64,000 bases of DNA from Candidatus Bathyarchaeota archaeon (GCA_963833125.1 CAWHWX010000004.1:96001-160000); one strand, 5' to 3'; counted from the first letter of the stretch, positions 5,305 to 53,270 are shown. Translations and numbers: made by a program. Notes: generated by a model not told the origin, from the sequence alone.

Positions 5305-6415
5305 TTAGAGATTCTTCTTACCTAGGGTTCGCGGGATCACGCCAGATCGAAGGCAATGATCCGCCAAAACAATCGCGACTGAAGCCTCTACGACCGGTAC
5401 GGCCTTCGGAACTATGCACGGGTCGTGGCGACCAGTAACTTGAATCGTCGTGTCCTGCATATCCTTCAAGTTTACAGTCTTCTGTTCCTTCGGAATCGAC
5501 GAAGGTGGTTTAAACCCAACACGTACAACGATAGGCATTCCATTTGACAACCCCCCAAGAATTCCACCAGCATTGTTTGTCAAGGTAACCACCTTACCGT
5601 CCTTGACCGCGTAGGAATCGTTATTCACTGACCCCGTTACTGCGGAGGCCTGAAACCCTAATCCCACTTCAAAGCCCTTGACCGCTGGAATACTGAACGC
5701 GATCTTAGCAAGGTCCGCATCTAAGCTATCGAAGAAGGGTTCGCCAATTCCAGGCGGCACTCCGTCCGCTATGCATTCGACAACACCGCCCAGGCTATCG
5801 CCTTCATTTCGAGCCTTCAAAATTGCCTCCTGCATCTTCTGGGCAACATCTGGATCAGCGCAACGAACTGAGTTCGTGTACGCATCACGTTTTATTACGT
5901 CATGCTGCAGTTGTTTGTCCATTCTTATTGAATCGACCTGCACCGTGTGTGCAAAAACCTGCACGCCAATCGCAGTTCAGGAGTTTTTTCGCGATCGCCC
6001 CCGCCATGACTATTGGGGCCGTTAGTCTTCCGCTGGCACGTCCTCCACCCCGTAGGTCGTTGAACCCGCCGTATTTGATTCTCGCGGGATAATCCGCGTG
6101 GCCTGGCCTTGCGACGTTGGCTAGTTTGTCGTAATCTTGCGACCTAACATCCTTGTTTAGCGAAAGCACCGCTACCGGAGCACCCGTTGTATACCCATCG
6201 AATAACCCGGATAGAATCTGCACCTCATCTCGCTCGCGGCGTGCGGATGTAATGCTCGGGTCGGGCGGCATTCTCCTCGCGAGTTCCTCGTTCACCTCTT
6301 CAGCGCTAAGCTTGAGTCCTGCCGGACAACCATCAATGACAGCAGCCACCCCTGGGCCATGGCTCTCTCCGAATACTGTCACGCGGAATTGCTTGCCAAA
6401 CGAACTATCACTCAA
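5305..6415 (-). CDS. aroC: Chorismate synthase (one frameshift near 5975)
   Basis: FGESHG, RPGHAD, GGRASGR in ORF 5900-6415; GDSLGG, NNAGGILGG, GRHDPC in ORF 5305-5964. Confidence 0.93.
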
Positions 6416-7677
6416 TCACATTGACCCCCAAAGCTCGGATGTCGTTGAAGTATGTTGGGTAGGATTTATTCACACACTCTGCATTTCTGATCATGACCGG
6501 GCCGCTTGCGTTAAGGGCTGCTATGGAAAGTGCCATAGCGATTCGATGGTCGCCGTGGGAATCAACAGTTCCTTCGTGAAGAGAAGCCGGCCCTAAGATA
6601 ACTAACCCGTTGCCGCTCTCGCCAATCTCTGCCCCAAGTAATCTCATCTCGGACATGATCACGTATAGTCTGTCAGACTCTTTATAGCGCAACCTCCCGG
6701 CTCCGGTAATTCTTGTTTCTCCTTCGGCATGACAACCCAGTACTGCTATAACCGGCCCTAGATCGGGACAGTTAGTGATGTCCGTGTCCACTGCCTTAAG
6801 CGCTTGGCCTTCCACACGCAACGCAGCCGACGTGAAACGAGTCGTAACGCCCATGCGACCTAACACTTCCAAGAAAGCTGAATCCGGATCAGAGCGGTCG
6901 TGCGGGAGTCCTAGAATCGTAATTTTCGACCGAGTCACGGCTGCAGCAGCCATGAGGAATGCTGCGGATGAATAGTCGCCGGGAATCGTGTGTTCCGACG
7001 GCTTGTAGGTTTGACCCGGCGTGACTTCATAGCGTGACATATCATCGTTGATGTCTACACTGACGCCGTGACGTTTCATCGTCTCAACTGTCATTGATAC
7101 GTAGCCGCGCGATTCTAAGGGTGAAATGAGTTTCATTGTTAGCCCGGCTTCCATTAGCGGGCCGGCGAGAAGCAGGCCGGAAATGAATTGAGAACTCACA
7201 TTACCCGGCAACTCAACATTGCCTCCTTTAGCTGGTCCCGCCTTAACTTGAACTCGCGTTTCCCTCGAGGCTGATTTCTATGCCCAGCTGCCTCATGCTT
7301 TCAATTAGGGCTTGAATGGGTCTCCGCATTAGCGTTTCGCTGCCTTTCAACCAAACTTCCTTTCCCGCGAGCGACGCGATGGGGATTGTAAACCTGAGAG
7401 TCACTCCTGACTCTCCGCATTCAATCGTTCGTTGCGGTGCAATGGGTCGCCCTGTACTCAAAACGCGCCAGCTCTCTTGTCCTCTCTCGAATTTTGCTCC
7501 TAGAGATGCAACGGCAGCAGCTGTCGCCTCCGTATCGTCGCAGTAGAGAGGGTTGTGTATTATTGTCGAGCCGTTTGAAAGCAGCCCTCCGAAGAGTGCA
7601 CGGTGTGTTAGCGCCTTGGAGGGAGGTGCCTTTACCTCTCCCGAAAGCACGTGGGTCGGAGCAATTGTGATATTCAA
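6408..7677 (-). CDS. aroA: EPSP synthase (one frameshift near 7257)
   Basis: PPSKALTHR, GESGVTLRF, GNVSSQFISG, KESDR, DHRIAM, KSYP across two frames. Confidence 0.93.
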
Positions 7678-7679
7678 AC

Positions 7680-8561
7680 TTAGAGCCTCGTGGATTTTGC
7701 TTTCTGGAAATTGAGTGAAGTTTCAATGATCCGACCACCCAGTCTGCGCCAAACGGCGCGAACGTTCTCTTTGTCGGATTCTCGAACAATTGCAACAACT
7801 GCGGGTCCTTTTCCTGTCAAACCGGCTGCTACTGCGCCAGCGTTCAATGCGGTCATGGTGGATGTCGTGTTAAACCCAAATGCGGTTGAGTACGCCAGTC
7901 CGTTAAGTGTTAACGAGTTCCAGTAGTCACCTCGTAATGCTTCTCTGAAGGCGACTCGAATTATTGGTTTGATTTCTCTCAGTGGTGCAGGGTCGACATC
8001 ATGTGTGTATAACTTCTGCTTTGGGACGTGAACGAGAACTCGGAGTCTAGTCCCTGGCTTAAACCGCTTGAGAATTCTCCGCTTCAAATTGTCAGTTATC
8101 ACGACCCCCCCAAAATAGCATGCGCAAGCATCGTCAAAGGCTCCCGTGAGGGTGACCCCTGCACTCAGGCTTGCCTCAACCCCAAGTTTGACTACTTCGA
8201 TGTCCTCTGTTTTTCTTCCCAATGCCTTTACGCATGCAAGGGCAATAGCATTACTCGCAGCACTGCTGCTCTTGAGACCCGCAGCAATTGGTATGTTCGA
8301 TTGCGTTTCGACAATGGCTCCCAATCGTTTGCTGTAGCCAAACCGACGAAATACTCGCTTCACTGTTGCTTCAGCTAACCCGCCTTTCTCTTTGGGGTCG
8401 CTGAGGTTCCTTTCTGTGATTAACCCCGCTCGACTTGTTAGCGTCACCTTGGCTCGGGTCCACAGTTTTATGCCGACCGCTGCGCCCTTACCAGTTGCCA
8501 TGGCGTTCACTATGGTTACAGCTCCGTAACTCACTGCCTCAGCTCCTCGAGCCATGGTCAT
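7680..8561 (-). CDS. aroK: Archaeal GHMP-type shikimate kinase
   Basis: VNAMATGKGAA, GLKSSSA, TGAFDDA, GLTGKGP; ATGA overlap with aroE stop gives start 8561. Confidence 0.93.
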   Translation of the reverse strand: MTMARGAEAVSYGAVTIVNAMATGKGAAVGIKLWTRAKVTLTSRAGLITERNLSDPKEKGGLAEATVKRVFRRFGYSKRLGAIVETQSNIPIAAGLKSSSAASNAIALACVKALGRKTEDIEVVKLGVEASLSAGVTLTGAFDDACACYFGGVVITDNLKRRILKRFKPGTRLRVLVHVPKQKLYTHDVDPAPLREIKPIIRVAFREALRGDYWNSLTLNGLAYSTAFGFNTTSTMTALNAGAVAAGLTGKGPAVVAIVRESDKENVRAVWRRLGGRIIETSLNFQKAKSTRL

Positions 8562-9424
8562 TCGCCATTGACTCGAGCAATTGACCGGCGCATCTCGGAG
8601 ACCGGGGGTTTCTTTCCGGTCCAGATCGTGAATGAGCATGCGCCTTGACCCACTAGCATATCTAATCCGTCAATCGTCCGAGCCCCCGCTAAAATCGCAT
8701 TTCGAAGCAGCATGGTTCTCACGGGTCTGTAAACGATGTCGAAAACACATTGATCCGACCGCAGCCATTTCTTGGAGATGGGAACGTTCACATTCCCACT
8801 CATACCCATCGAGGATGCGTTCAAGATTATGTCCGCACTCTCTACATGTGTCCGCAACGATTGGCTCGAAAGAGACACACACTTGGTTTCGACACCGAAT
8901 TCCTTGCGCAAGAGTTTCGCTAACCTTTGAGCCCTTGAAATCCTACGATTCACAAAAGTGATCCGACATCGTTGTCCGGAAAGTGTGTGGGCAATAGCCC
9001 GTGCGGCACCGCCAGCGCCGAAGAGTAGAATTGATTTACCGCGAGTTGAGACCTTCGCTTCATTCAGGGCATATAACGCTCCAGCTCCGTCTGTGTTAAA
9101 TCCAGTCAAGGTGCCCGCATCAGCCTTCACAGTGTTTATCGATCGAATCTCAGCTGCCTTAGTTTCAACTTGGTCGATGTACCGAAGCATCGCAGCCTTG
9201 TGTGGAGTCGTGACATTGAACCCCCTTACCCCAAGGGATTTCAAACCTTGAATGGCGAACCTTAGCCCAGAACTCTCGACGCGAAACGGGACGTAGATCG
9301 CGTTCAGGCCCGTCGCTCGAAAGGCAGTGTTTTGGATTGTGGGGCTCATCGAGTGGTCAATTGGATCGCCGATGAGAGCGTACACCATACTGCTCCCTGA
9401 GACGTTTTGCTTATTGGATTCCAA
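8558..9424 (-). CDS. aroE: Shikimate dehydrogenase
   Basis: GDPIDHSMSP, GFNVTTPHK, NTDG, GAGGAA, DIVY. Confidence 0.95.
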   Translation of the reverse strand: MESNKQNVSGSSMVYALIGDPIDHSMSPTIQNTAFRATGLNAIYVPFRVESSGLRFAIQGLKSLGVRGFNVTTPHKAAMLRYIDQVETKAAEIRSINTVKADAGTLTGFNTDGAGALYALNEAKVSTRGKSILLFGAGGAARAIAHTLSGQRCRITFVNRRISRAQRLAKLLRKEFGVETKCVSLSSQSLRTHVESADIILNASSMGMSGNVNVPISKKWLRSDQCVFDIVYRPVRTMLLRNAILAGARTIDGLDMLVGQGACSFTIWTGKKPPVSEMRRSIARVNGE

Positions 9425-10073
9425 GGGTTTGCCAAACCATCCTAAGTGCGTCTATGCTCAATTGGCCATCGGCAGTTTTCGATTCCTCCGAGACTGATGC
9501 AAAAGTGAATTCCGCACCATACCAAGGCGATAGAATTCGCGATGGAATACCTTGTAACCCCATCGCGAACGAGACCAATCTCGTATTGGCTGATTCATCT
9601 TCCACGAAACCAAGAATTGTCAAGTTATCGCTCGGTTTGAGCGCAGTGGTTACAACTTTACAAACGTCACCTCCAACTTTCTTCTCCGCTTGCAAAACCT
9701 TCCTCAATTCTTCGGAAGAAGGCGTGCGAGAAAAATCGTGAAATGATACGATTACTTCACTCCCTCTGGACTTAACTTCTTTGACTATGGGATGGGATGA
9801 GGCTGCTGAAAGTTCGATGTCAACCAAATCGAAACCTGCAGCCGCAGCATGTGATAGAAGTTCTAATCTAGGGTTCGAGCCTCGACTCGATCTGTCTGTA
9901 GCGATAACAGGGCAGAACTTTGTTTTCGCGATCTCTTCGAGGATTTTAGGTTCACGTATTCTGTCGAGTCGAAATTCAACGAGGTCGGGTTTCTTGGATG
10001 AGATTTGCTCGATGAGTTTAGCAACATTCGCTTTGTCATCTACCATGACGGACAGGCATACTTTGCACTTCAG
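9411..10073 (-). CDS. aroD: Type I 3-dehydroquinate dehydratase (CTG start)
   Basis: EFRLD, VSFHDF, DVCKVV, AMG...SR, TADGQL; N-terminus KCKVCLSV needs a CTG start overlapping the aroB' TGA. Confidence 0.9.
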   Translation of the reverse strand: MKCKVCLSVMVDDKANVAKLIEQISSKKPDLVEFRLDRIREPKILEEIAKTKFCPVIATDRSSRGSNPRLELLSHAAAAGFDLVDIELSAASSHPIVKEVKSRGSEVIVSFHDFSRTPSSEELRKVLQAEKKVGGDVCKVVTTALKPSDNLTILGFVEDESANTRLVSFAMGLQGIPSRILSPWYGAEFTFASVSEESKTADGQLSIDALRMVWQTLGIQ

Positions 10074-11125
10074 CGCTCGATCACCATTTCGTCCGCTACC
10101 AAGGTGCCGAAATGACGGCCGCCTTCCTCGATCCTCAGCAGAACCTCATCGCCTGTCTTTAGCTCGGAGACGGGGGTCGAAGCAGCGTTCGATACTAGCC
10201 GAACTGTCTCCGCATTCTGAAGTATTATTGAGAAATTGTGATTGTTGGCTTCGGTTACAACGAGCACCATAGGCCTCCGTTCTATTTTCACGCGTCCAAC
10301 ATGCCCTGTTCTTGTCGCTCCAGCGCGGCTTACGATTAGTATTTCTTCTCCCGCCTTGAGTTCGGCAAGGTAACGAGTCTTCAATCCAGGCGCGAGGACG
10401 TAAGAGGAGACAGGTCCAGCATTTACGCGAAAAGGCCTAGGTTCAACATGTGGGTTTCTATGAACCTCCGCTTCGACCAAGAATAAGCCTGATGATTGTG
10501 ACCCAACGAGCATACCTTCCCCTGGTTCCAGCAGCTCGCATGTATCGATACAGACTCTAGCCCCGGGACCAATTTGCCTGACGTCAACGACCTTTCCCTC
10601 AATCAGGGGAACATTATTGCCTGGGATGTCAAATTGGTTCACCCCGTCGAGGTCAGTTGGCGAAGCGGCTGTAAGGACGACGCCATCCACCCCTAGTTCC
10701 AGTGTCTGTAAAGCGACTTGAGCTTCGCTCTTGTTCGCTACGTCGGCGAGTAAGCTGACCTTGTTCCTAGTCCTCGCGATGAGGTTCTCAAGCGGGATAA
10801 TTTTCCAGTTCGGACACTTCACGAGCACATACCGTACCCCAGATTCTGCTAGCTCTAGAACTCTCTCTTCGTCTGAATGATCCTTTACGACTATCTCCAT
10901 AGCAGCATTCTTAGGAACTGCGTCGCCAGTCCCAGTCCGCGTTGATAGAATTCTGATATCAGATCGTTCGTCTGTCGATGCCGTTTTCAGTTTCAGGCCA
11001 CTTGCGAGTGGTAGGTCTTCTGGAGAAAGCACGGCTACGTTGAAATTCGCTTCGGCTATTTTGAGCAGTTCCTTCTTCTTAGCCTGGGTTATCTTGGGGT
11101 CTAGTCGAAGCCAGAGTTCTTTCAC
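10070..11125 (-). CDS. aroB': 3-dehydroquinate synthase II (AroB')
   Basis: WKIIPLENLIA, RVCIDT, RPFRVNAG, LQNAETV, GRHFG. Confidence 0.95.
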   Translation of the reverse strand: MKELWLRLDPKITQAKKKELLKIAEANFNVAVLSPEDLPLASGLKLKTASTDERSDIRILSTRTGTGDAVPKNAAMEIVVKDHSDEERVLELAESGVRYVLVKCPNWKIIPLENLIARTRNKVSLLADVANKSEAQVALQTLELGVDGVVLTAASPTDLDGVNQFDIPGNNVPLIEGKVVDVRQIGPGARVCIDTCELLEPGEGMLVGSQSSGLFLVEAEVHRNPHVEPRPFRVNAGPVSSYVLAPGLKTRYLAELKAGEEILIVSRAGATRTGHVGRVKIERRPMVLVVTEANNHNFSIILQNAETVRLVSNAASTPVSELKTGDEVLLRIEEGGRHFGTLVADEMVIER

Positions 11126-11913
11126 TAAGACCCCTCGAGCAGTCTTGAAGCGTCCTTTGCGTTCGCATGCTCGTGAACAATCGCTGCTAGGGCTCTGCTC
11201 ATTGCTTCAGGGTTATCATGTTGGAAGACGTTCCTGCCAAATGAGAGCCCGGCTGCGCCGGCTTTCATCGAACTCTCACCTAGCTCAAGAATATCCATGT
11301 CAGTCTTCATTCTTGGCCCGCCAGCTACGACAACTGGGACTGGGCAACTTTGCACCACTCGTCGGAAACTGTTAGTGTCGCCTGTGTAAACGGTTTTGAC
11401 TACGTCTGCTCCAAGTTCTGCCCCGATTCTCGCCGCATGTGACACAACTTCGTACTCATTCTCGTTCTTTATGTTGGGGCCGCGTGGGTACATCATGGCG
11501 AGCAAGGGCATTCCGAAGGAATCGCACTGTTCTGAGAGGCCGCCGAGAAACTGAAGCATCTTGTCTTCATCTTCCGAACCTATGTTGATGTGCGCTGAAA
11601 CTGCGTCGGCCCCGAGTCTAACTGCTTCTTCGAGAGTGCACACGCCCACTTTCAAGTTGGGCTTGCCACCGAGTTTAGTGGAGGCGGAGACGTGAACTAT
11701 CAATCCTGAGCCTTGTGTGTCCACATGTTTCGCTATGCCCTTGTGCACCAAGACAGCGTCGGCTCCGCCGCTCACTACACGTTTTACGGTTTCTTGCATG
11801 TTTTCCAATCCTCTCACAGGGCCTAGCGTGACGCCATGGTCCATGGCAATTATGAAGCTCTTAGAATCAGCTCTCATAATTCTTCGTAACCTTCTGGTCT
11901 TGCCGGATTCCAT
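11125..11913 (-). CDS. aroA': 2-amino-3,7-dideoxy-D-threo-hept-6-ulosonate synthase (DhnA-type aldolase)
   Basis: [29 protein letters not shown]; adjacent to aroB'. Confidence 0.9.
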
Positions 11914-11926
11914 TATTCGATCACTT

Positions 11927-12958
11927 TCAGAGGTATCCTTGTGATTTCATCGACTCAGCTATTAGGAGAGCGCAACCTGCCGCTCCTCGGATTGTATTGT
12001 TCCCGAGGGCTACATACTTGATGCCCGAGAAGACAGGGTCACTGCGAACCCTCCCGACTACCACTGACATGCCATGCCCTTCATTTCTATCGAAACGTGG
12101 CTGGGGCCGATATTCATCGGACCTTACAACTACGGGTCGTTCTGGGGCTGTTGGGAGCTTCAATTTCTGCGGTTCCGCGGTGAACACTTTCATGCAGTGC
12201 TCCACTTGTTCAGGCGTCGCCGGTTTCTCTGTTTGAACGAAGACGGCTTCGGTATGTCCGTCAAGTACTGCCACACGATGGCAACTCGCGGACACAATGA
12301 ACTCAGCCGAACGTCCCGCTTGACCTAGAATCTTGGTTGTTTCTCGCTGAACTTTCTCTTCCTCTCCGTTAATGAATGGGATTACGTTGTCGATTATGTC
12401 CAACGAAGCTACCCCTGGGTATCCTGCCCCGGAGGTCGCCTGCATGGAGGACATCACTACATTTCTCAGCCCAAACGCGTCATAGATGGGTTTGAGGGAT
12501 AGGGTTAGTACTGCCGTCGTGCAGTTGGGGTTTGTTACGATCGATCCGTCCCATTTTCGTTTTCGTCTCTGTTCGTCGATTAGTGAGAGGTGAGTGAAGT
12601 TAGTTTCTGGATTCATCAGTGGAACATCTGGGTCCATTCTGTGGGAGGAGGCGTTGCTAACTACTGCGAAACCTTGCCTTGCGAAGTCTTCCTCGATTCC
12701 TTGCGCCTGTTCAGCTGGCAGGGCGGAAAAAACAATATCCGCGTCGACGGATCTGGGTTCCGAAGGTTGTACGGTAAGTTCCGCAATCTCTTTCTTCAGT
12801 GGTGTCTCCATTCTCCAGTTTACCGCTTCTCCGTATTCGACCCCCGAACTTCGTTCCGACCCAGTTAACGCGACGATTTCGAACCACTCGTGATCGTTCA
12901 ACAATTGTACGAAACGTTGCCCTACCAAACCAGTTGCCCCGAGTATTGCAGCTTTCAA
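11927..12958 (-). CDS. asd: Aspartate-semialdehyde dehydrogenase
   Basis: GATGLVGQ, NPNCTT, QATSGAG, GEEEK, RGAAG. Confidence 0.95.
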   Translation of the reverse strand: MKAAILGATGLVGQRFVQLLNDHEWFEIVALTGSERSSGVEYGEAVNWRMETPLKKEIAELTVQPSEPRSVDADIVFSALPAEQAQGIEEDFARQGFAVVSNASSHRMDPDVPLMNPETNFTHLSLIDEQRRKRKWDGSIVTNPNCTTAVLTLSLKPIYDAFGLRNVVMSSMQATSGAGYPGVASLDIIDNVIPFINGEEEKVQRETTKILGQAGRSAEFIVSASCHRVAVLDGHTEAVFVQTEKPATPEQVEHCMKVFTAEPQKLKLPTAPERPVVVRSDEYRPQPRFDRNEGHGMSVVVGRVRSDPVFSGIKYVALGNNTIRGAAGCALLIAESMKSQGYL

Positions 12959-14197
12959 GATAATTCCCCTTTGGCAATCTGCTTCATCAAGCGCAAGGCC
13001 AACTCCTTGTCATCCCACGCGACAAATACGAGAATACTGGAAGCAAGGGTAAGCATTCCGTAGATGTTGATTCGATTCTCAAGCAAATGGGACGAGATTC
13101 TACCAATTATACCGGGGGTATCTTCTAGGCCTACGCCTTTCACTTTGAGAAATGCTAAGTGGGGCTGAACAGCCATTGCCATCGTTTCTCCATGTCTCAT
13201 GATCACGTTGTGTACGGCGGCTAGAACAGAGTTCGATCCGGTCTCTGGGACGTAGAAGATTAGCGAGTTGAAGTTTTCGGAGAGGCCGTCTAGGGATGAG
13301 TGTTTATGTATTTCCCTGATTACGTCGCTGAGTATCTCTGGGTTTTCGGAAATTCCCTTACCGGCGATGGTTACAGCCATAACTTGGCGATTTTCTTCAA
13401 AGGTGACGTCAATCTCTGTCGAGATACCGCCAGTGATAATCGTTCCGTCCGCTTCAAGATCACTCTTCTCACGGTTTATGACTCTAACCGGAATATCTGG
13501 GTCCTTGTATCTGAGAGCCTTTCTGTGGATGAACTTCGTTCCAGAATCCGCCAATCCAATGAGAGTTCTAACATCAATCTTTTCCAGCCTTCGAGCGTCC
13601 GGGATGAGTTTCGGGTCTGCGGATAGGATTCCGTCTGCGTCGGTTACTAGAACTACTTCATCTGCACCAATCGCCTTCGCCATTATGAAAGCGGTCGTGT
13701 CGCTTCCCCCTCGGCCAATTGTGCTAACTTTGCCTGCTGTGGAGCGCCCCACGAACCCAGCGATCACTGGGACTGTACGCCAATCAAGGAGAGGGAGCAC
13801 ATGCTCGCGAACCCTCTGCAAACATAGTTCAAGAATCGGGTTCGCATCAGAGAAGTTATCGTCAGTTATGATGGGCCAATTAGGTTCCCCAGGATCGAAG
13901 TATTTTGCTTCAATGCCCAGAGCCTTTAGAGCATTTGCGAAGACCCTGACGCTTGTTCTCTCGCCCATCGCTAGAATGTCGTCTGAGTCAGTCTTGTCCA
14001 GGCTCAATACTGAATCTTGGCTGATCAAGTTTAGGAGCTGATCAGTCATCTTTCCCATGGCGGATACAACCACGACTAGCCGCGGTGCCCTTCGCGCTTT
14101 CTTTCGCGATCAAGCCGGCGGCCTTGCTCACTCGGTCTTTGTCTCGAAGGCTAGAGCCCCCAAACTTGACCACTAGGGTCTTCGAACTATGCTTCAA
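12955..14197 (-). CDS. lysC: Aspartate kinase with ACT domains (frameshift near 14082)
   Basis: VVKFGGSS in upstream frame; VVSAMG, GRGGSD, DGILSADP downstream; TTG start at 14197. Confidence 0.92.
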
Positions 14198-14252
14198 AGC
14201 GACAACTGCGCTAGGGTTGGTTTCGGGTTTCAGCGTCGCGCTAGAGGAAAAA

Positions 14253-14330
14253 CTAGTTCGGGGAGAGTCTAGTGTGGGGAAGCCAGTAGTGATCACCGTA
14301 AATGTGACCACCGAAGTTACAACCTCTCAA
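14253..14330 (-). CDS. Putative 25-aa leader peptide MRGCNFGGHIYGDHYWLPHTRLSPN
   Basis: TTG start 10 nt after GAGG; stop followed by TTTTT; lies between a TTTTAAG box (~14380) and lysC. Confidence 0.35.
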   Translation of the reverse strand: MRGCNFGGHIYGDHYWLPHTRLSPN

Positions 14331-14429
14331 TTATCTCATGCCTCGCCCGTTGTTAGTTTTGCGAAGGGTGCCTCAGTCTCTTAAAAGAATAGCTCAACAA
14401 ATCAGCATAACCCTACGTCGAGAAGACAT

Positions 14430-15122
14430 TTACACGCCCATGTACAGTCGTTCCGCTAGAAAACTAGGCAGACCACTGCTAAGGATTCGATCTGCTACCA
14501 GATCCACATTGTACTCAACTCTCCGAACCTCCAACTCAACATCTCCTTTAGAAATAGTGAGCAACGCGAAACTTGCTCGATGGTCGCCATCTCTAGGTTG
14601 GCCGACGCTCCCAGGGTTTGCCAGAACGTCATCCTCGAACCTGTAAAGCATGGGCATGTGTGTATGTCCAAGCAGCACAATATTTGCGGAGGCAGCCTTT
14701 ACCAAACTATGCCCTACAGTAGCAGGCACGCCAGGGAAGACGTACTCATTCAAAGGATCACGGGGGCTGCCGTGATAGAGCGCGAATGTGCGCCCCTCAC
14801 GCTGTATTCTTGCGGATGGCTTTAGTGTGGCAAGGTAGCTGCGACTTAGCTCGTTAACATTCCGTCTTGTCCATTCGACCGCTATCGCGGCGTTAGCCGA
14901 GAACCCTTGCACGTCACCGTTAACAACGGCGTAATCGTGGTTGCCGAGGAGGACAACTGACGGATGAAGTTCTTCGAGTCTTGCAATTACTTCGTTTGGC
15001 TGAGGCCCATAGCCAACAACATCTCCGAGGCAGAATAGCTCATCGTGCTTTGGCAGTTTAGCGATTACTGCTTCAAGAGCAGGTAAGTTGGAATGTATGT
15101 CAGAGATGACTGCGATTATCAT
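14430..15122 (-). CDS. Metallophosphoesterase (YfcE/MJ0936-like)
   Basis: SDIHSN, LGDVVGYG, GNHD, HGSP, GHTH, NPGSVGQPRD. Confidence 0.92.
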   Translation of the reverse strand: MIIAVISDIHSNLPALEAVIAKLPKHDELFCLGDVVGYGPQPNEVIARLEELHPSVVLLGNHDYAVVNGDVQGFSANAAIAVEWTRRNVNELSRSYLATLKPSARIQREGRTFALYHGSPRDPLNEYVFPGVPATVGHSLVKAASANIVLLGHTHMPMLYRFEDDVLANPGSVGQPRDGDHRASFALLTISKGDVELEVRRVEYNVDLVADRILSSGLPSFLAERLYMGV

Positions 15123-15174
15123 TAAGGGGTCTATGATGTGGGCTGTCTTCCTTGAGAAAGACTTGATGGTAAAA

Positions 15175-15777
15175 TTAGAAATCCTGGCTCATTTGCTGAA
15201 CGTATGAAAGGTCTTCCCCACAGTAGGGGCATGACTTAAATTTTGTATCAACTCTCTTCCCACATTCTGGGCACTCTACCTTGAGTGGATATCGACAGAA
15301 TGGACATAATGCGAAATCGTCCGCAACCTTGTGTCCACATTCCTTACACGTCTGTTCCCCACTCGCCTCTTCCTCCCGTTTCGACTGCAACGGGCTCTGA
15401 ATGATCACAGGAGGCGGTTGCATGACGCCTGATGGGGAACCCTTGACTATATTCTCCCTTAGAACTCTGTGAAGCTGGTAAGCGTCTGCTCTCGTGAGAC
15501 TCCCGATCCTTATGTTTTGAACGCCAGATCGCATGAGAATTTCGACGCTCGCTCTAACCACCCCACGGTCAAGTCTAATGTTGACCATGTTCGTGTATGG
15601 GTAATCTACGAAGCTCTTCTTGAGCCCTAAGCCCCCGGATTTGCGGATAATGATTCGCTGGTCGCTTACCACTACTGTCTCGCTGCCCTTGACAACCCAA
15701 ATGACTTTCTCATCGTAATTGATGAGATGCCTCATGTCATCTGGTACGGGGAGCGACGCCAAACCATGCGACCTCAA
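15175..15777 (-). CDS. PH-like domain + double zinc ribbon protein
   Basis: VVVSDQRIII beta-strand pattern; Pro linker; four CxxC (CKEC, CPFC, CPEC, CPYC). Confidence 0.75.
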   Translation of the reverse strand: MRSHGLASLPVPDDMRHLINYDEKVIWVVKGSETVVVSDQRIIIRKSGGLGLKKSFVDYPYTNMVNIRLDRGVVRASVEILMRSGVQNIRIGSLTRADAYQLHRVLRENIVKGSPSGVMQPPPVIIQSPLQSKREEEASGEQTCKECGHKVADDFALCPFCRYPLKVECPECGKRVDTKFKSCPYCGEDLSYVQQMSQDF

Positions 15778-15942
15778 GGCAACGCTAAGGTTCTGATTAG
15801 CTTTGATGATAAGATGTATTGCGTTGCAGCATCAAAAAAGCCCATGGGGCCTCTAGGGAAAAGGAGCCAGACATAGCAATTTCAGGTGTTTTTCGTCGCT
15901 CTAGTTAAGTAGCTTGTACTTGGAAATATATGATGATGTTCA

Positions 15943-16326
15943 ATGGAAATGACCGAAACAACACTGAAAGTCGGAACTAGAACTTTCAGAGTAAATTACA
16001 GTCAACTGGAGAATGCTATAGTTGCTTTCCTATTCGAGGATCGTATTCGTCTCGGAACGGTTGCGATCGCTATGCCTGGTCTGCGTGAAGTTGCTGTCGG
16101 GCGGTCTTCCGTATTGGTTGGCGGCAAGTATCTGATGACGAGTAGAGCCTTAGCGGAGAAACTTGCTGGAAAGAGCGGCCGGATCGCATTAGTTTCCTTA
16201 TCCACTGAACTCGATGAAGCTGAGGCTCTAAGAATTTACACTAAGTTGCTCGATCAGGTTCAATTGGCTCAGCCTTCCGACGAGAAGATTGGTCCGCTCA
16301 ATTCTTCAATACGACAACACGTTTGA
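15943..16326 (+). CDS. Proteasome assembly chaperone 4 (PAC4)-like protein
   Basis: LGTVAIAMP...SSVLVG...SRALAEKLAGKSGRIALVS resembles the PAC4 pattern (recalled, not searched). Confidence 0.6.
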   Translation: MEMTETTLKVGTRTFRVNYSQLENAIVAFLFEDRIRLGTVAIAMPGLREVAVGRSSVLVGGKYLMTSRALAEKLAGKSGRIALVSLSTELDEAEALRIYTKLLDQVQLAQPSDEKIGPLNSSIRQHV

Positions 16327-51783: not shown

Positions 51784-53184
51784 TCAAGCCCCTCTAAGTT
51801 TCAGAGCACGCAAGAGCGCGTCGGCCTTATGTTCGGTTTCAAACCATTCGAGCGTTGGATCAGAATCAGCAACTATTCCCGCACCCGCCTGAATGTACGC
51901 CCGACGCCCATCCGCGACTAGTGTCCGAATCGTTATCGCAAAATCAGCATTGCCATTGTAAGAAAAGTATCCTACTGCGCCAGCATATGGTCCTCTTCGG
52001 CACGGTTCCAGTTCGTCAATAATTTCCATCGCCCTCTTCTTCGGTGCACCTGAGACCGTTCCAGCCGGAAATACGGCCTTGAAGAAATCGATTGCGTCGC
52101 AACTAGGTCTAAGTTGGCCTGATACCCTGGAAACGATGTGTTGCACGTGGCTGTATTTTTGGATGGTCATAAATTCTGGAACTGTAACGGTTCCGAATTC
52201 GCATACCTTTCCAAGATCGTTTCTGGCCAAATCAGTTAGCATGATGTGTTCTGCTCTCTCTTTGGGATCGTTAAGCAACTCGTCTGCCAATCGGTCATCT
52301 TCTTTAGCGTTCTTGCCTTTCGGGCGTGTTCCAGCAATTGGGAATGTGTCAGCACGTTTGCCTTCGAGTCTTCCAAGCATTTCAGGACTTGAACCCACTA
52401 TCGCCCTTCTTTTCATCTTGAGGAAATACATGTAAGGTGAGGGGTTGATGTCGCGCAACGCCTGATAGAAGTCGATTAGATCTCCTTTGAACGAGAACTC
52501 GAACCGTTTGGATAATACTGCTTGAAAGATATCTCCGGCTTTGATGTAGCGTTTCGCTTTTCGGACCATGCCTTCGAATTTTTCTTTGGTGATGTTTGTG
52601 CTTGGTTTCTTCGCGACTAACGTTTTTGCTTTAGGCTGTTGGCCCAGTAGGCGTTCTAACTGTCGAATTCTATTATCGGTGTACCAGTAATAGTAAGCTT
52701 GGCCGGTTAGATGATCAAAGACTATTCCATCGTCGTATACTCCGAACTCGAAGTCAGGGAACGCTAAATCGTCTTTGGCACGTTTGGGAAGCGATTCGAG
52801 GTAGCGTATCGCGTCATAAGAGAAGTAGCCTACGAGTCCACCTACAAAACGGATCCCGCGGTAGGTTGTGAAATTTTCCGCTAGAACTCTCCGAAGGGCC
52901 AGAAATGGATCAGGGGTTTCAAATGTTGAGGAGTTATTTCCAATGGAGGATGTTTCTCGGTATCTTCGGTTTTTTACTTCAACGATTCTTGAGGGCGAGA
53001 ACCCGATGAATGAGTACTGTGCAAGTTTCCTGGGGCCTTCGGCGGATTCCAAGAGGTAGCAATAATCGCTGTGGTTGCTAAGAACTCGAAATGTGTGTAG
53101 AGGATTTTCGGAATACCGGAACTTTTGGAGCTTCAGCCTATGATCTGCTTGAGTGATCGTTTGAGCGTTTCTTCCAAAGGCCAT
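51784..53184 (-). CDS. trpE: Anthranilate synthase component I
   Basis: LLES, NPSPYM, PIAGT, KERAEH, GTVSGAPK, AITIRT. Confidence 0.96.
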   Translation of the reverse strand: MAFGRNAQTITQADHRLKLQKFRYSENPLHTFRVLSNHSDYCYLLESAEGPRKLAQYSFIGFSPSRIVEVKNRRYRETSSIGNNSSTFETPDPFLALRRVLAENFTTYRGIRFVGGLVGYFSYDAIRYLESLPKRAKDDLAFPDFEFGVYDDGIVFDHLTGQAYYYWYTDNRIRQLERLLGQQPKAKTLVAKKPSTNITKEKFEGMVRKAKRYIKAGDIFQAVLSKRFEFSFKGDLIDFYQALRDINPSPYMYFLKMKRRAIVGSSPEMLGRLEGKRADTFPIAGTRPKGKNAKEDDRLADELLNDPKERAEHIMLTDLARNDLGKVCEFGTVTVPEFMTIQKYSHVQHIVSRVSGQLRPSCDAIDFFKAVFPAGTVSGAPKKRAMEIIDELEPCRRGPYAGAVGYFSYNGNADFAITIRTLVADGRRAYIQAGAGIVADSDPTLEWFETEHKADALLRALKLRGA

Positions 53185-53237
53185 ACCCCATTTTAGTCAC
53201 TGTTCCAGCGTATGCCGCATATGTGACGCTGATACGT

Positions 53238-53270
53238 TATTTAAAGCTACAGAGTACAGAAATGTACTCT
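53238..53270 (-). promoter_or_regulatory. trp promoter: TTTAAATA TATA box with adjacent palindrome AGAGTACA-N4-TGTACTCT
   Basis: TATA at 53238-53245; perfect 8-bp inverted repeat 53251-53270 whose half-sites resemble the TRP box TGTACA. Confidence 0.7.

Follow-up and report, generated by a model that had tools for sequence, protein, structure and literature searches.

The lysC-aro operon of this Candidatus Bathyarchaeota archaeon is preceded by a 25-codon ORF (14330-14253) which, judged by comparison with related loci, is a genuine leader under selection, and the same comparison supports a role for it in sensing aromatic amino acids ahead of the operon. We consider it rather probable, though far from assured, that LysC would be made by a +1 frameshift of the kind known from bacterial prfB, taken at an aromatic codon of the leader that has been left hungry. 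A parallel arrangement is found at the 5' end of trpE in the same window, by which we mean the whole stretch of 64,000 nt that was analyzed.

The source genome is a 3.07-Mb metagenome-assembled genome (MAG) of 39 contigs that is 88% complete, and the LysC relatives that bear names are, among the matches listed, MAGs of Bathyarchaeota or Bathyarchaeia. On the minus strand of the window, the operon and its upstream neighbor are arranged as follows:

End at 14430, minus strand: metallophosphoesterase gene, the upstream neighbor, followed by a gap of 230 nt and then by the nine-gene operon.
12955..14197, minus strand: body of lysC, with Pfam matches to an amino-acid kinase domain and an ACT domain.
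5305..12958, minus strand: remainder of the operon after lysC, namely asd, ADH synthase, DHQ synthase II, aroD, aroE, a GHMP-type shikimate kinase, aroA and aroC.

The nine genes have the order lysC-asd-ADH synthase-DHQ synthase II-aroDEKAC, in which we read a DeoC-family aldolase as the ADH synthase; by gene content, the product of the pathway is chorismate. The start of asd overlaps the stop of lysC (12958 and 12955). The order lysC-(asd)-ADH synthase-DHQ synthase II recurs in 48 of 49 related loci, the exception being a truncated locus. The archaeal route to dehydroquinate proceeds through the aldolase and DHQ synthase II, and since this route starts from aspartate semialdehyde, LysC and Asd represent the first two steps of the operon's own pathway. 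LysC of the operon is a dedicated aspartokinase that supplies the archaeal aromatic pathway with aspartate semialdehyde. Among the 40 related genomes from which lysC loci were collected, most carry a second, distant aspartokinase elsewhere. In the genome of the window, this second gene (C36:8581-9562; L002 and L003) is apparently interrupted, with two matching pieces and one internal TAA.

The lysC frame of the window is broken at 14083 by one extra base, which is either an assembly error or a strain mutation. Relatives possess intact lysC frames of 450 to 463 aa, and the extra base is absent from a contig of another sample that is about 95% identical (run X2); runs of the identical strain gave no coverage at this position, and over the leader the coverage by DNA contigs of the runs was patchy. 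Two further genes of the operon are split: aroA (EPSP synthase, 7677-6408, minus strand) into ORFs of 144 and 267 aa, and aroC (chorismate synthase, 6415-5305, minus strand) into ORFs of 171 and 219 aa. These three frame breaks within one 9-kb operon call for caution over single bases of the window assembly.

Ahead of lysC, the following elements were located:

14386-14380, minus strand: TTTTAAG, the TATA-like promoter box of the lysC-aro operon; all 18 genus loci share TTTTAA unchanged.
14339-14331, minus strand: mini-ORF ATG AGA TAA; relatives have ATG AGR CAA instead and read on in frame into the leader.
14330-14253, minus strand: leader ORF (frame A) of 25 codons plus TAG, with a TTG start (MRGCNFGGHIYGDHYWLPHTRLSPN); conserved in its start, SD-like box, aromatic codons and stop column.
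14315-14313 (Phe), 14300-14298 and 14288-14286 (Tyr) and 14285-14283 (Trp), minus strand: aromatic codons of the leader.
14198..14311, minus strand: open frame in +1 (frame B), which overlaps the leader and then runs through a Ser/Thr/Pro/Gln-rich linker into LysC.

The elements on which the original prediction was built (TTTTAAG, ATG AGA TAA, the 25-codon ORF, TAG-T5, a Val/Thr-rich frame and a stem) were all present on the minus strand where it had placed them. To judge frame conservation, we aligned 18 lysC loci of the genus out of the lysC loci of the 40 related genomes; the loci compared are kin and do not represent independent samples. In these 18 loci, TTTTAA sits about 50 to 55 nt upstream of the leader start, and an SD-like box is kept 5 to 10 nt upstream of it; in the window, GAGG at 14344-14341 precedes the leader TTG 14330 on the minus strand. 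Within the genus alignment, TAA replaces CAA in the mini-ORF of the window and of L006. By this comparison ATG AGA TAA is the ancestral leader start, its CAA mutated to TAA, with the next TTG lying in the same frame.

Frame A is built of G-[GD]-x-[IVL]-[FY] units. The aromatic codons expected to stand out in an alignment of leaders did so: all 18 genus loci retain the Tyr codon (TAC in 10, TAT in 8), 16 retain Phe and 15 retain Trp. The leader stop falls in a single alignment column in 17 of the 18 loci, as TAG in five, TAA in seven and TGA in five. It is the first stop of the leader in 14 loci; earlier stops occur at the Trp column in L012 and four codons sooner in L018, L020 and L021. A stop that is held in place while all three stop codons are exchanged argues for selection on the translation of frame A.

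The aromatic content of the ORF is by itself not beyond chance, and it is conservation that makes the leader real. Of the 12,487 small ORFs that precede gene-like ORFs in this genome, 635 reach four F, Y or W residues in a stretch of 12. Such an ordinary count would suit the view that lysC simply starts at TTG 14197 and that the ORFs upstream are meaningless, but this view is contradicted by conservation over 49 loci and by the frame statistics given below, and we regard it as almost certainly wrong. A search of the window's genome for small ORFs rich in a single amino acid was too noisy to be informative, a search of the same genome for a second copy of the repeated peptide unit gave a single unrelated match inside a 147-codon ORF, and no comparable leader was found in the regions upstream of pheA and tyrA.

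Frame B is the Val/Thr-rich frame that had been described as lying in phase with lysC, and this description proved correct: from GTG 14311 onward it is in frame with the VVKFGG motif of lysC. Because the Val/Thr-rich frame is the +1 frame leading into LysC, it is not a threonine leader, and threonine sensing, which the original prediction had offered beside aromatic sensing, was dropped. Its Thr codons belong to the lysC frame itself.

We examined the relation of the two frames in 26 loci in which the leader is fused to lysC, comprising those of the genus, three sister-genus genomes and five of family f2. In 25 of them, the lysC frame is shifted by +1 against that of the leader. In these 25, it contains no stop from the NTT_T site to KFGG, a stretch of 114 to 174 nt, over which the other two frames hold 82 and 56 stops. 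The exception, L020, differs by one base from its near-twin L021, leaving no start. Frame B is accordingly open and constrained in length down to VVKFGG. The TTG at 14197-14195, previously taken as the lysC start, is not conserved across relatives and is missing in several genomes; six loci (L008, L011, L013 and L014 of the genus, besides L023 and L028) have no in-frame ATG, GTG or TTG besides the GTG codons of the leader motif. On this comparative evidence, entry into LysC runs through the overlapping +1 frame, and TTG 14197 is not supported as the start of lysC.

The place at which ribosomes might change from frame A to frame B is marked by three elements:

14303-14298, minus strand: proposed +1 shift site ATT_TAC; NTT followed by TAY stands at this column in 18 of 18 loci.
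14304..14312, minus strand: G-rich element GGTGGTCAC, before the shift site; it could also form the 5' arm of a hairpin.
14289..14297, minus strand: second copy GGTGATCAC, before TAC TGG; the 3' arm of the possible hairpin.

The P codon at the shift column of the genus is ATT in 12 loci, GTT in four and CTT in two, and TTT in the lysC frame is invariant across all 18. Most genus loci contain a second site, NUU_UUC, 15 nt upstream of the shift site. In the window and its three closest relatives this upstream unit reads AAC TTC or GAC TTC; as the window has AAC TTC and not NUU_UUC, it is left with a single canonical shift site. Its Trp codon is preceded by TAC, which is incapable of +1 re-pairing. 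At 48 lysC sites, the P codon is preceded at a distance of 4 nt by a GGTG(G/A)T consensus, and 26 trpE sites have a related element, RGGNAT, upstream; NTT followed by T is read at all 48 of the former and all 26 of the latter. The G-rich element may be a Shine-Dalgarno-like stimulator of the shift; a 16S rRNA 3' end with which it could pair was not found in the assembly.

The geometry of the lysC ATT_TAC site matches that of a NUU_UGG site at trpE, which lies in the same window (53184-51784, minus strand) and begins with the following leader:

53191..53174, minus strand: trpE leader ATG GGG TAT GGC CTT TGG, with TrpE in the +1 frame.

This 5' end, consisting of an SD, ATG, four codons and TGG, is shared by 26 loci belonging to eight families. 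TGG is preceded by NTT in every case (CTT in 14, GTT in six, TTT in four and ATT in two), the small ORF stops 4 to 45 codons past the Trp codon, and TrpE lies in the +1 frame of the small ORF in 26 of 26 loci. In 16 of the 26, neither ATG nor GTG nor TTG occurs in the TrpE frame between the upstream stop and the site. For 11 of these 16, the nearest in-frame start further on lies 78 to 531 nt downstream, and its use would remove conserved N-terminal sequence. The aligned first codon of TrpE is mostly ATA or ATC; ATG occurs there only in L150 and in the window, whose trpE has gained an in-frame ATG. From these alignments, synthesis of TrpE seems to require a +1 shift at NUU_UGG; the alternative would be a start at AUA or AUC.

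A degenerate pattern of the Trp module gave 47 matches in 41 of 201 genomes of the class, concentrated in the order of the window, and the reversed control pattern gave eight. TrpE is in the +1 frame at 21 of the 30 further pattern loci listed, 17 of these 21 being devoid of an upstream in-frame start. Within the genome of the window, the five-codon module has 20 matches, among which only trpE is credible; the two next best lie inside or at ordinary genes. Five genomes (G034, G043, G049, G055 and G095) contain two or three matches to the Trp-module pattern each, and the extra copies may head other genes. At L191, L193 and L200 the Trp module (M-G-Y-R-L-W and similar) is followed by +1-frame ORFs of only 59 to 70 codons, which do not encode TrpE and may serve as spacers in a coupled variant. 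We also observed an inverted repeat, GTACA-N4-TGTAC (53254-53267, minus strand), which abuts the trp TATA box at 53245-53238. Slightly altered versions of this repeat are present in most of the related trpE upstream regions, which makes it a likely operator for a transcription regulator.

The leaders of the two genes resemble each other codon by codon. In distant families the trpE leader reads ATG AGG GAT CGC GTT TGG, compared with GTG AGG GAT AGC GTT TAC for the lysC leader of L022; the lysC leaders of family f2 and of the sister genus read ATG GGT GAC CGT CTT TTC and ATG GGT GGT CAT CTT TAC. Read this way, the unit-type lysC leaders (class I, described below) are the trpE module with its sensing codon changed, UAY or UUC replacing UGG. 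The sensing codon fits the pathway: the tryptophan branch is preceded by a Trp codon, and the common pathway by Phe and Tyr codons, with a Trp codon following downstream.

A different account of frame B is that LysC has a real N-terminal extension with its own GTG (or ATG) start inside the motif, that GGTGGTC is the Shine-Dalgarno sequence of this start, and that the leader only modulates initiation by occlusion or unfolding, or competes with it. A GTG lies in the lysC frame inside the motif at every fused-type lysC locus, and own initiation is consequently possible for lysC, unlike for most trpE loci. GTG is invariant at two lysC-frame columns in 18 of 18 genus loci, with ATG there as well in eight, and the G-rich box lies 6 to 9 nt upstream of these GTG and ATG codons. 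Moreover, a change from GGT to TGT in L020 and L021 keeps the GTG while turning a Gly of the leader into Cys. However, a ribosome stalled on the aromatic codons would cover such a start and lower LysC in starvation, which is the wrong direction for a biosynthetic operon. An own start also leaves the Phe, Tyr and Trp codons and the conserved leader stop without a reason, the twin module at trpE does without such a start in 16 of 26 loci, and in the sister genus a single SD box precedes both the leader ATG and the GTG, at a distance of 4 nt from each other. We therefore judge this account unlikely. The +1 frameshift faces an objection of its own, namely that the slip would leave the Ile and Val tRNAs mispaired at the first position of the codon.

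The original prediction had interpreted the region as an attenuator. What stands of it is a conserved, translated leader with aromatic codons; the threonine part and the mechanism by terminator or stem do not. In classical ribosome-mediated transcription attenuation, the leader would control a terminator (the T5 run at 14252-14248 and/or the stem at 14239-14199), and lysC would be translated from TTG 14197. The window does have TTTTT directly 3' of the leader TAG 14255-14253 on the minus strand, and a 9-bp stem (14239-14231 with 14208-14199, minus strand) that ends one base before TTG 14197-14195; in addition, families with free-standing Phe/Tyr leaders possess a stable hairpin 1 to 7 nt past the leader stop. 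Against this, the T5 run occurs in only 4 of 18 genus loci, and the consensus fold of the genus alignment contains neither the stem, which is not conserved, nor any conserved helix downstream of the motif, nor mutually exclusive terminator and antiterminator helices overlapping the leader. In 25 of 26 loci, the lysC frame runs open through the supposed spacer, and TTG is missing in several genomes. A scan for bacterial-type terminators and promoters returned no site on the minus strand in 14198-14390, and an Rfam search of 13000-16000 with E up to 10 returned two weak, unrelated matches, both outside the leader. We consider attenuation of this type highly unlikely; as far as can be read from the alignments, control is more likely exerted on translation, through a +1 frameshift, than by transcription attenuation.

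Covarying stems, which had also been anticipated, did not emerge from the alignment fold. Its sole consensus helix is an 8-bp hairpin, GUGGUCAC/GUGAUCAC, inside the leader, which is pairable in 95% of cases across the alignment, is broken in L011 to L013 and shows zero covariation. This hairpin bears on a further possibility, in which the core is a nucleic-acid signal, either a DNA operator (near-palindromes GTGGTCAC and GTGATCAC) or an RNA hairpin to which a regulator binds, and both reading frames are by-products. The two pairable 8-mers, the standing of the hairpin as the only consensus structure and the invariance of several third codon positions are in its favor, but no compensatory change was found in the alignment, 245 of 500 shuffles score as well, and the loci with broken pairing remain to be accommodated. 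Nor does it explain the stop column occupied by three codons, the open +1 frame, or the aromatic mini-ORFs of families that lack the sequence. We hold it to be very improbable.

Across families, two classes of leader precede the LysC of the aro type. Class I consists of G-[GD]-x-[IVL]-[FY] units and is either fused to lysC, as in the window, or free-standing (L022, L025, L032, L042 and L043). In three of the free-standing loci, the +1 frame stays open past the leader stop for 136 nt (L025), 124 nt (L022) and 121 nt (L032) and ends 2 nt before the lysC start; only 40, 101 and 55 of 5,000 shuffles, respectively, stay open that far (0.8 to 2%). In L042 and L043 the stop of the leader's +1 frame overlaps the lysC start, with the openness of that frame not significant by itself in these two loci. 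The +1 peptides of L022 and L032 are unrelated in sequence despite belonging to one genus. That the openness and the end point are kept, and not the sequence, fits a translated spacer that delivers ribosomes to lysC.

Class II leaders end in C-terminal Phe/Tyr runs such as YYFYYY and lie in any frame relative to lysC, which has its own SD and ATG; a stable hairpin begins 1 to 7 nt after the leader stop. They were found at L024, L026-L031, L034-L038 and L177-L189, in other families of the order and in named Bathyarchaeia MAGs. The sequence of the strong hairpins, noted within the last of these ranges at L177, L178, L182, L184 and L187-L189, varies between families, and L034-L038 carry a 5' segment able to pair with the leader coding region. 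The class II leaders share with the leader of the window the position, the operon, the aromatic codons and the small SD-led ORF; the latter differs in its single, spaced aromatic codons and in a +1 frame tied to lysC. Overall, a unit or a Phe/Tyr-rich small ORF lies upstream of lysC in 49 of 49 aro-type loci and in 1 of 17 control loci of the aspartokinase paralogue (a single unit), a comparison in which the motif was defined after the data had been seen and many of the paralogue upstream regions are coding. The presence of unrelated Phe/Tyr-rich mini-ORFs at the same place in other families, and their absence before the paralogue, strengthen the claim of an aromatic leader. A search of the genome contigs for aspartokinases contributed L034-L038, L042 and L043, that is, 7 of at least 79 loci listed; the rest are mostly distant bacterial ones.

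Based on these observations, we propose the following course of events. Ribosomes would start at TTG 14330 behind GAGG 14344-14341, and the leader would read the charging of aromatic tRNAs. With charged Tyr-tRNA plentiful, ATT TAC (14303-14298) would be read in frame, translation would proceed past TAC TGG to the stop TAG 14255-14253, and no LysC would be made; in most relatives, Phe-tRNA would be read likewise at the upstream NUU_UUC. If the A site with the aromatic codon remains unoccupied, the peptidyl-tRNA paired with AUU could re-pair in +1 on UUU (14302-14300), after which ACG GTG ATC ACT ACT GGC would be read, then the linker, and translation would enter LysC. Asd is probably translated next, since the overlap of its start with the lysC stop would permit coupling. 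At trpE, the peptidyl-tRNA would re-pair on the UUU of NUU_UGG while the Trp codon waits. The conserved frames, the shared geometry of the sites, the aromatic codons and the content of the operon are observations; from them we infer that the shift takes place at the lysC site, depends on starvation and perhaps involves the G-rich element.

Extending the proposal beyond the window, we lean slightly toward an order-wide family of prfB-like hungry-codon leaders. Its members would be five-codon, SD-led modules in which NUU is followed by Trp (trpE) or by Phe or Tyr (aro LysC), and the enzyme would be made only after a +1 slip caused by an uncharged tRNA. Free-standing leaders would slip into a spacer ORF that reaches the lysC start. 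Such a family would operate with no terminator, riboswitch or regulatory protein.

Ribosome-based sensing of amino acids is a textbook feature of bacteria, and the programmed +1 frameshift of bacterial prfB (release factor 2) takes place at CUU_UGA_C. As in prfB, a short SD-led ORF comes first, the main product lies in the +1 frame, a G-rich element is found a few bases upstream, the NUU in the P site is able to re-pair on UUU, and a slowly decoded A-site codon would be the sensor. The predicted output would again be a trans-frame protein. Unlike in prfB, the sensor is a sense codon (Tyr or Phe, and Trp at trpE) read by an aminoacyl-tRNA and not by a release factor, the genes controlled are those of enzymes of amino-acid biosynthesis, the organism is an archaeon, and the spacing of the G-rich element is different (4 nt here).

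The enterobacterial transcription attenuators pheL (PMC3082878), trpL and hisL share with the lysC leader a short translated ORF with codons for the end product before the operon, and a signal given by the speed of the ribosome on these codons. The lysC leader, in contrast, has no terminator or antiterminator helices and no conserved U-run, overlaps the frame of the structural gene, and carries single aromatic codons spaced in G-[GD]-x-[IVL]-[FY] units; its output is most likely translational. The leaderless polycysteine short ORFs of mycobacteria, in the portion of the report consulted (bioRxiv 10.1101/834739), likewise represent upstream ORFs devoted to one amino acid that tune a downstream operon. 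They concern another amino acid and another domain of life, and a frameshift into the structural gene is not reported in that portion.

In the full-text literature, with subscription journals and supplements lying outside the search, we found no description of amino-acid sensing by leader peptides in archaea. The full-text literature likewise yielded no sense-codon +1 frameshift that lies before trpE or lysC or that gates a biosynthetic enzyme. The terms tryptophan and anthranilate are absent from the accessible text of a 2021 review of archaeal recoding (PMC8211752) and from that of a 2013 survey of frame transitions (PMC3711429), and in the accessible text of PMC6393860 the mentions of leaders are limited to bacteriocin leaders. 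The device most likely combines leader-peptide sensing with recoding of the prfB type, a combination unreported in the literature searched.

If the proposal is true, it would add one more regulated recoding signal to the few that are known, such as those of prfB and antizyme, and would explain why trpE and lysC genes appear "startless" or N-terminally odd to gene callers. It would also represent a new way for a cell to gauge its supply of amino acids, and would show how the synthesis of aromatic amino acids is controlled in an uncultured, globally abundant class of archaea.
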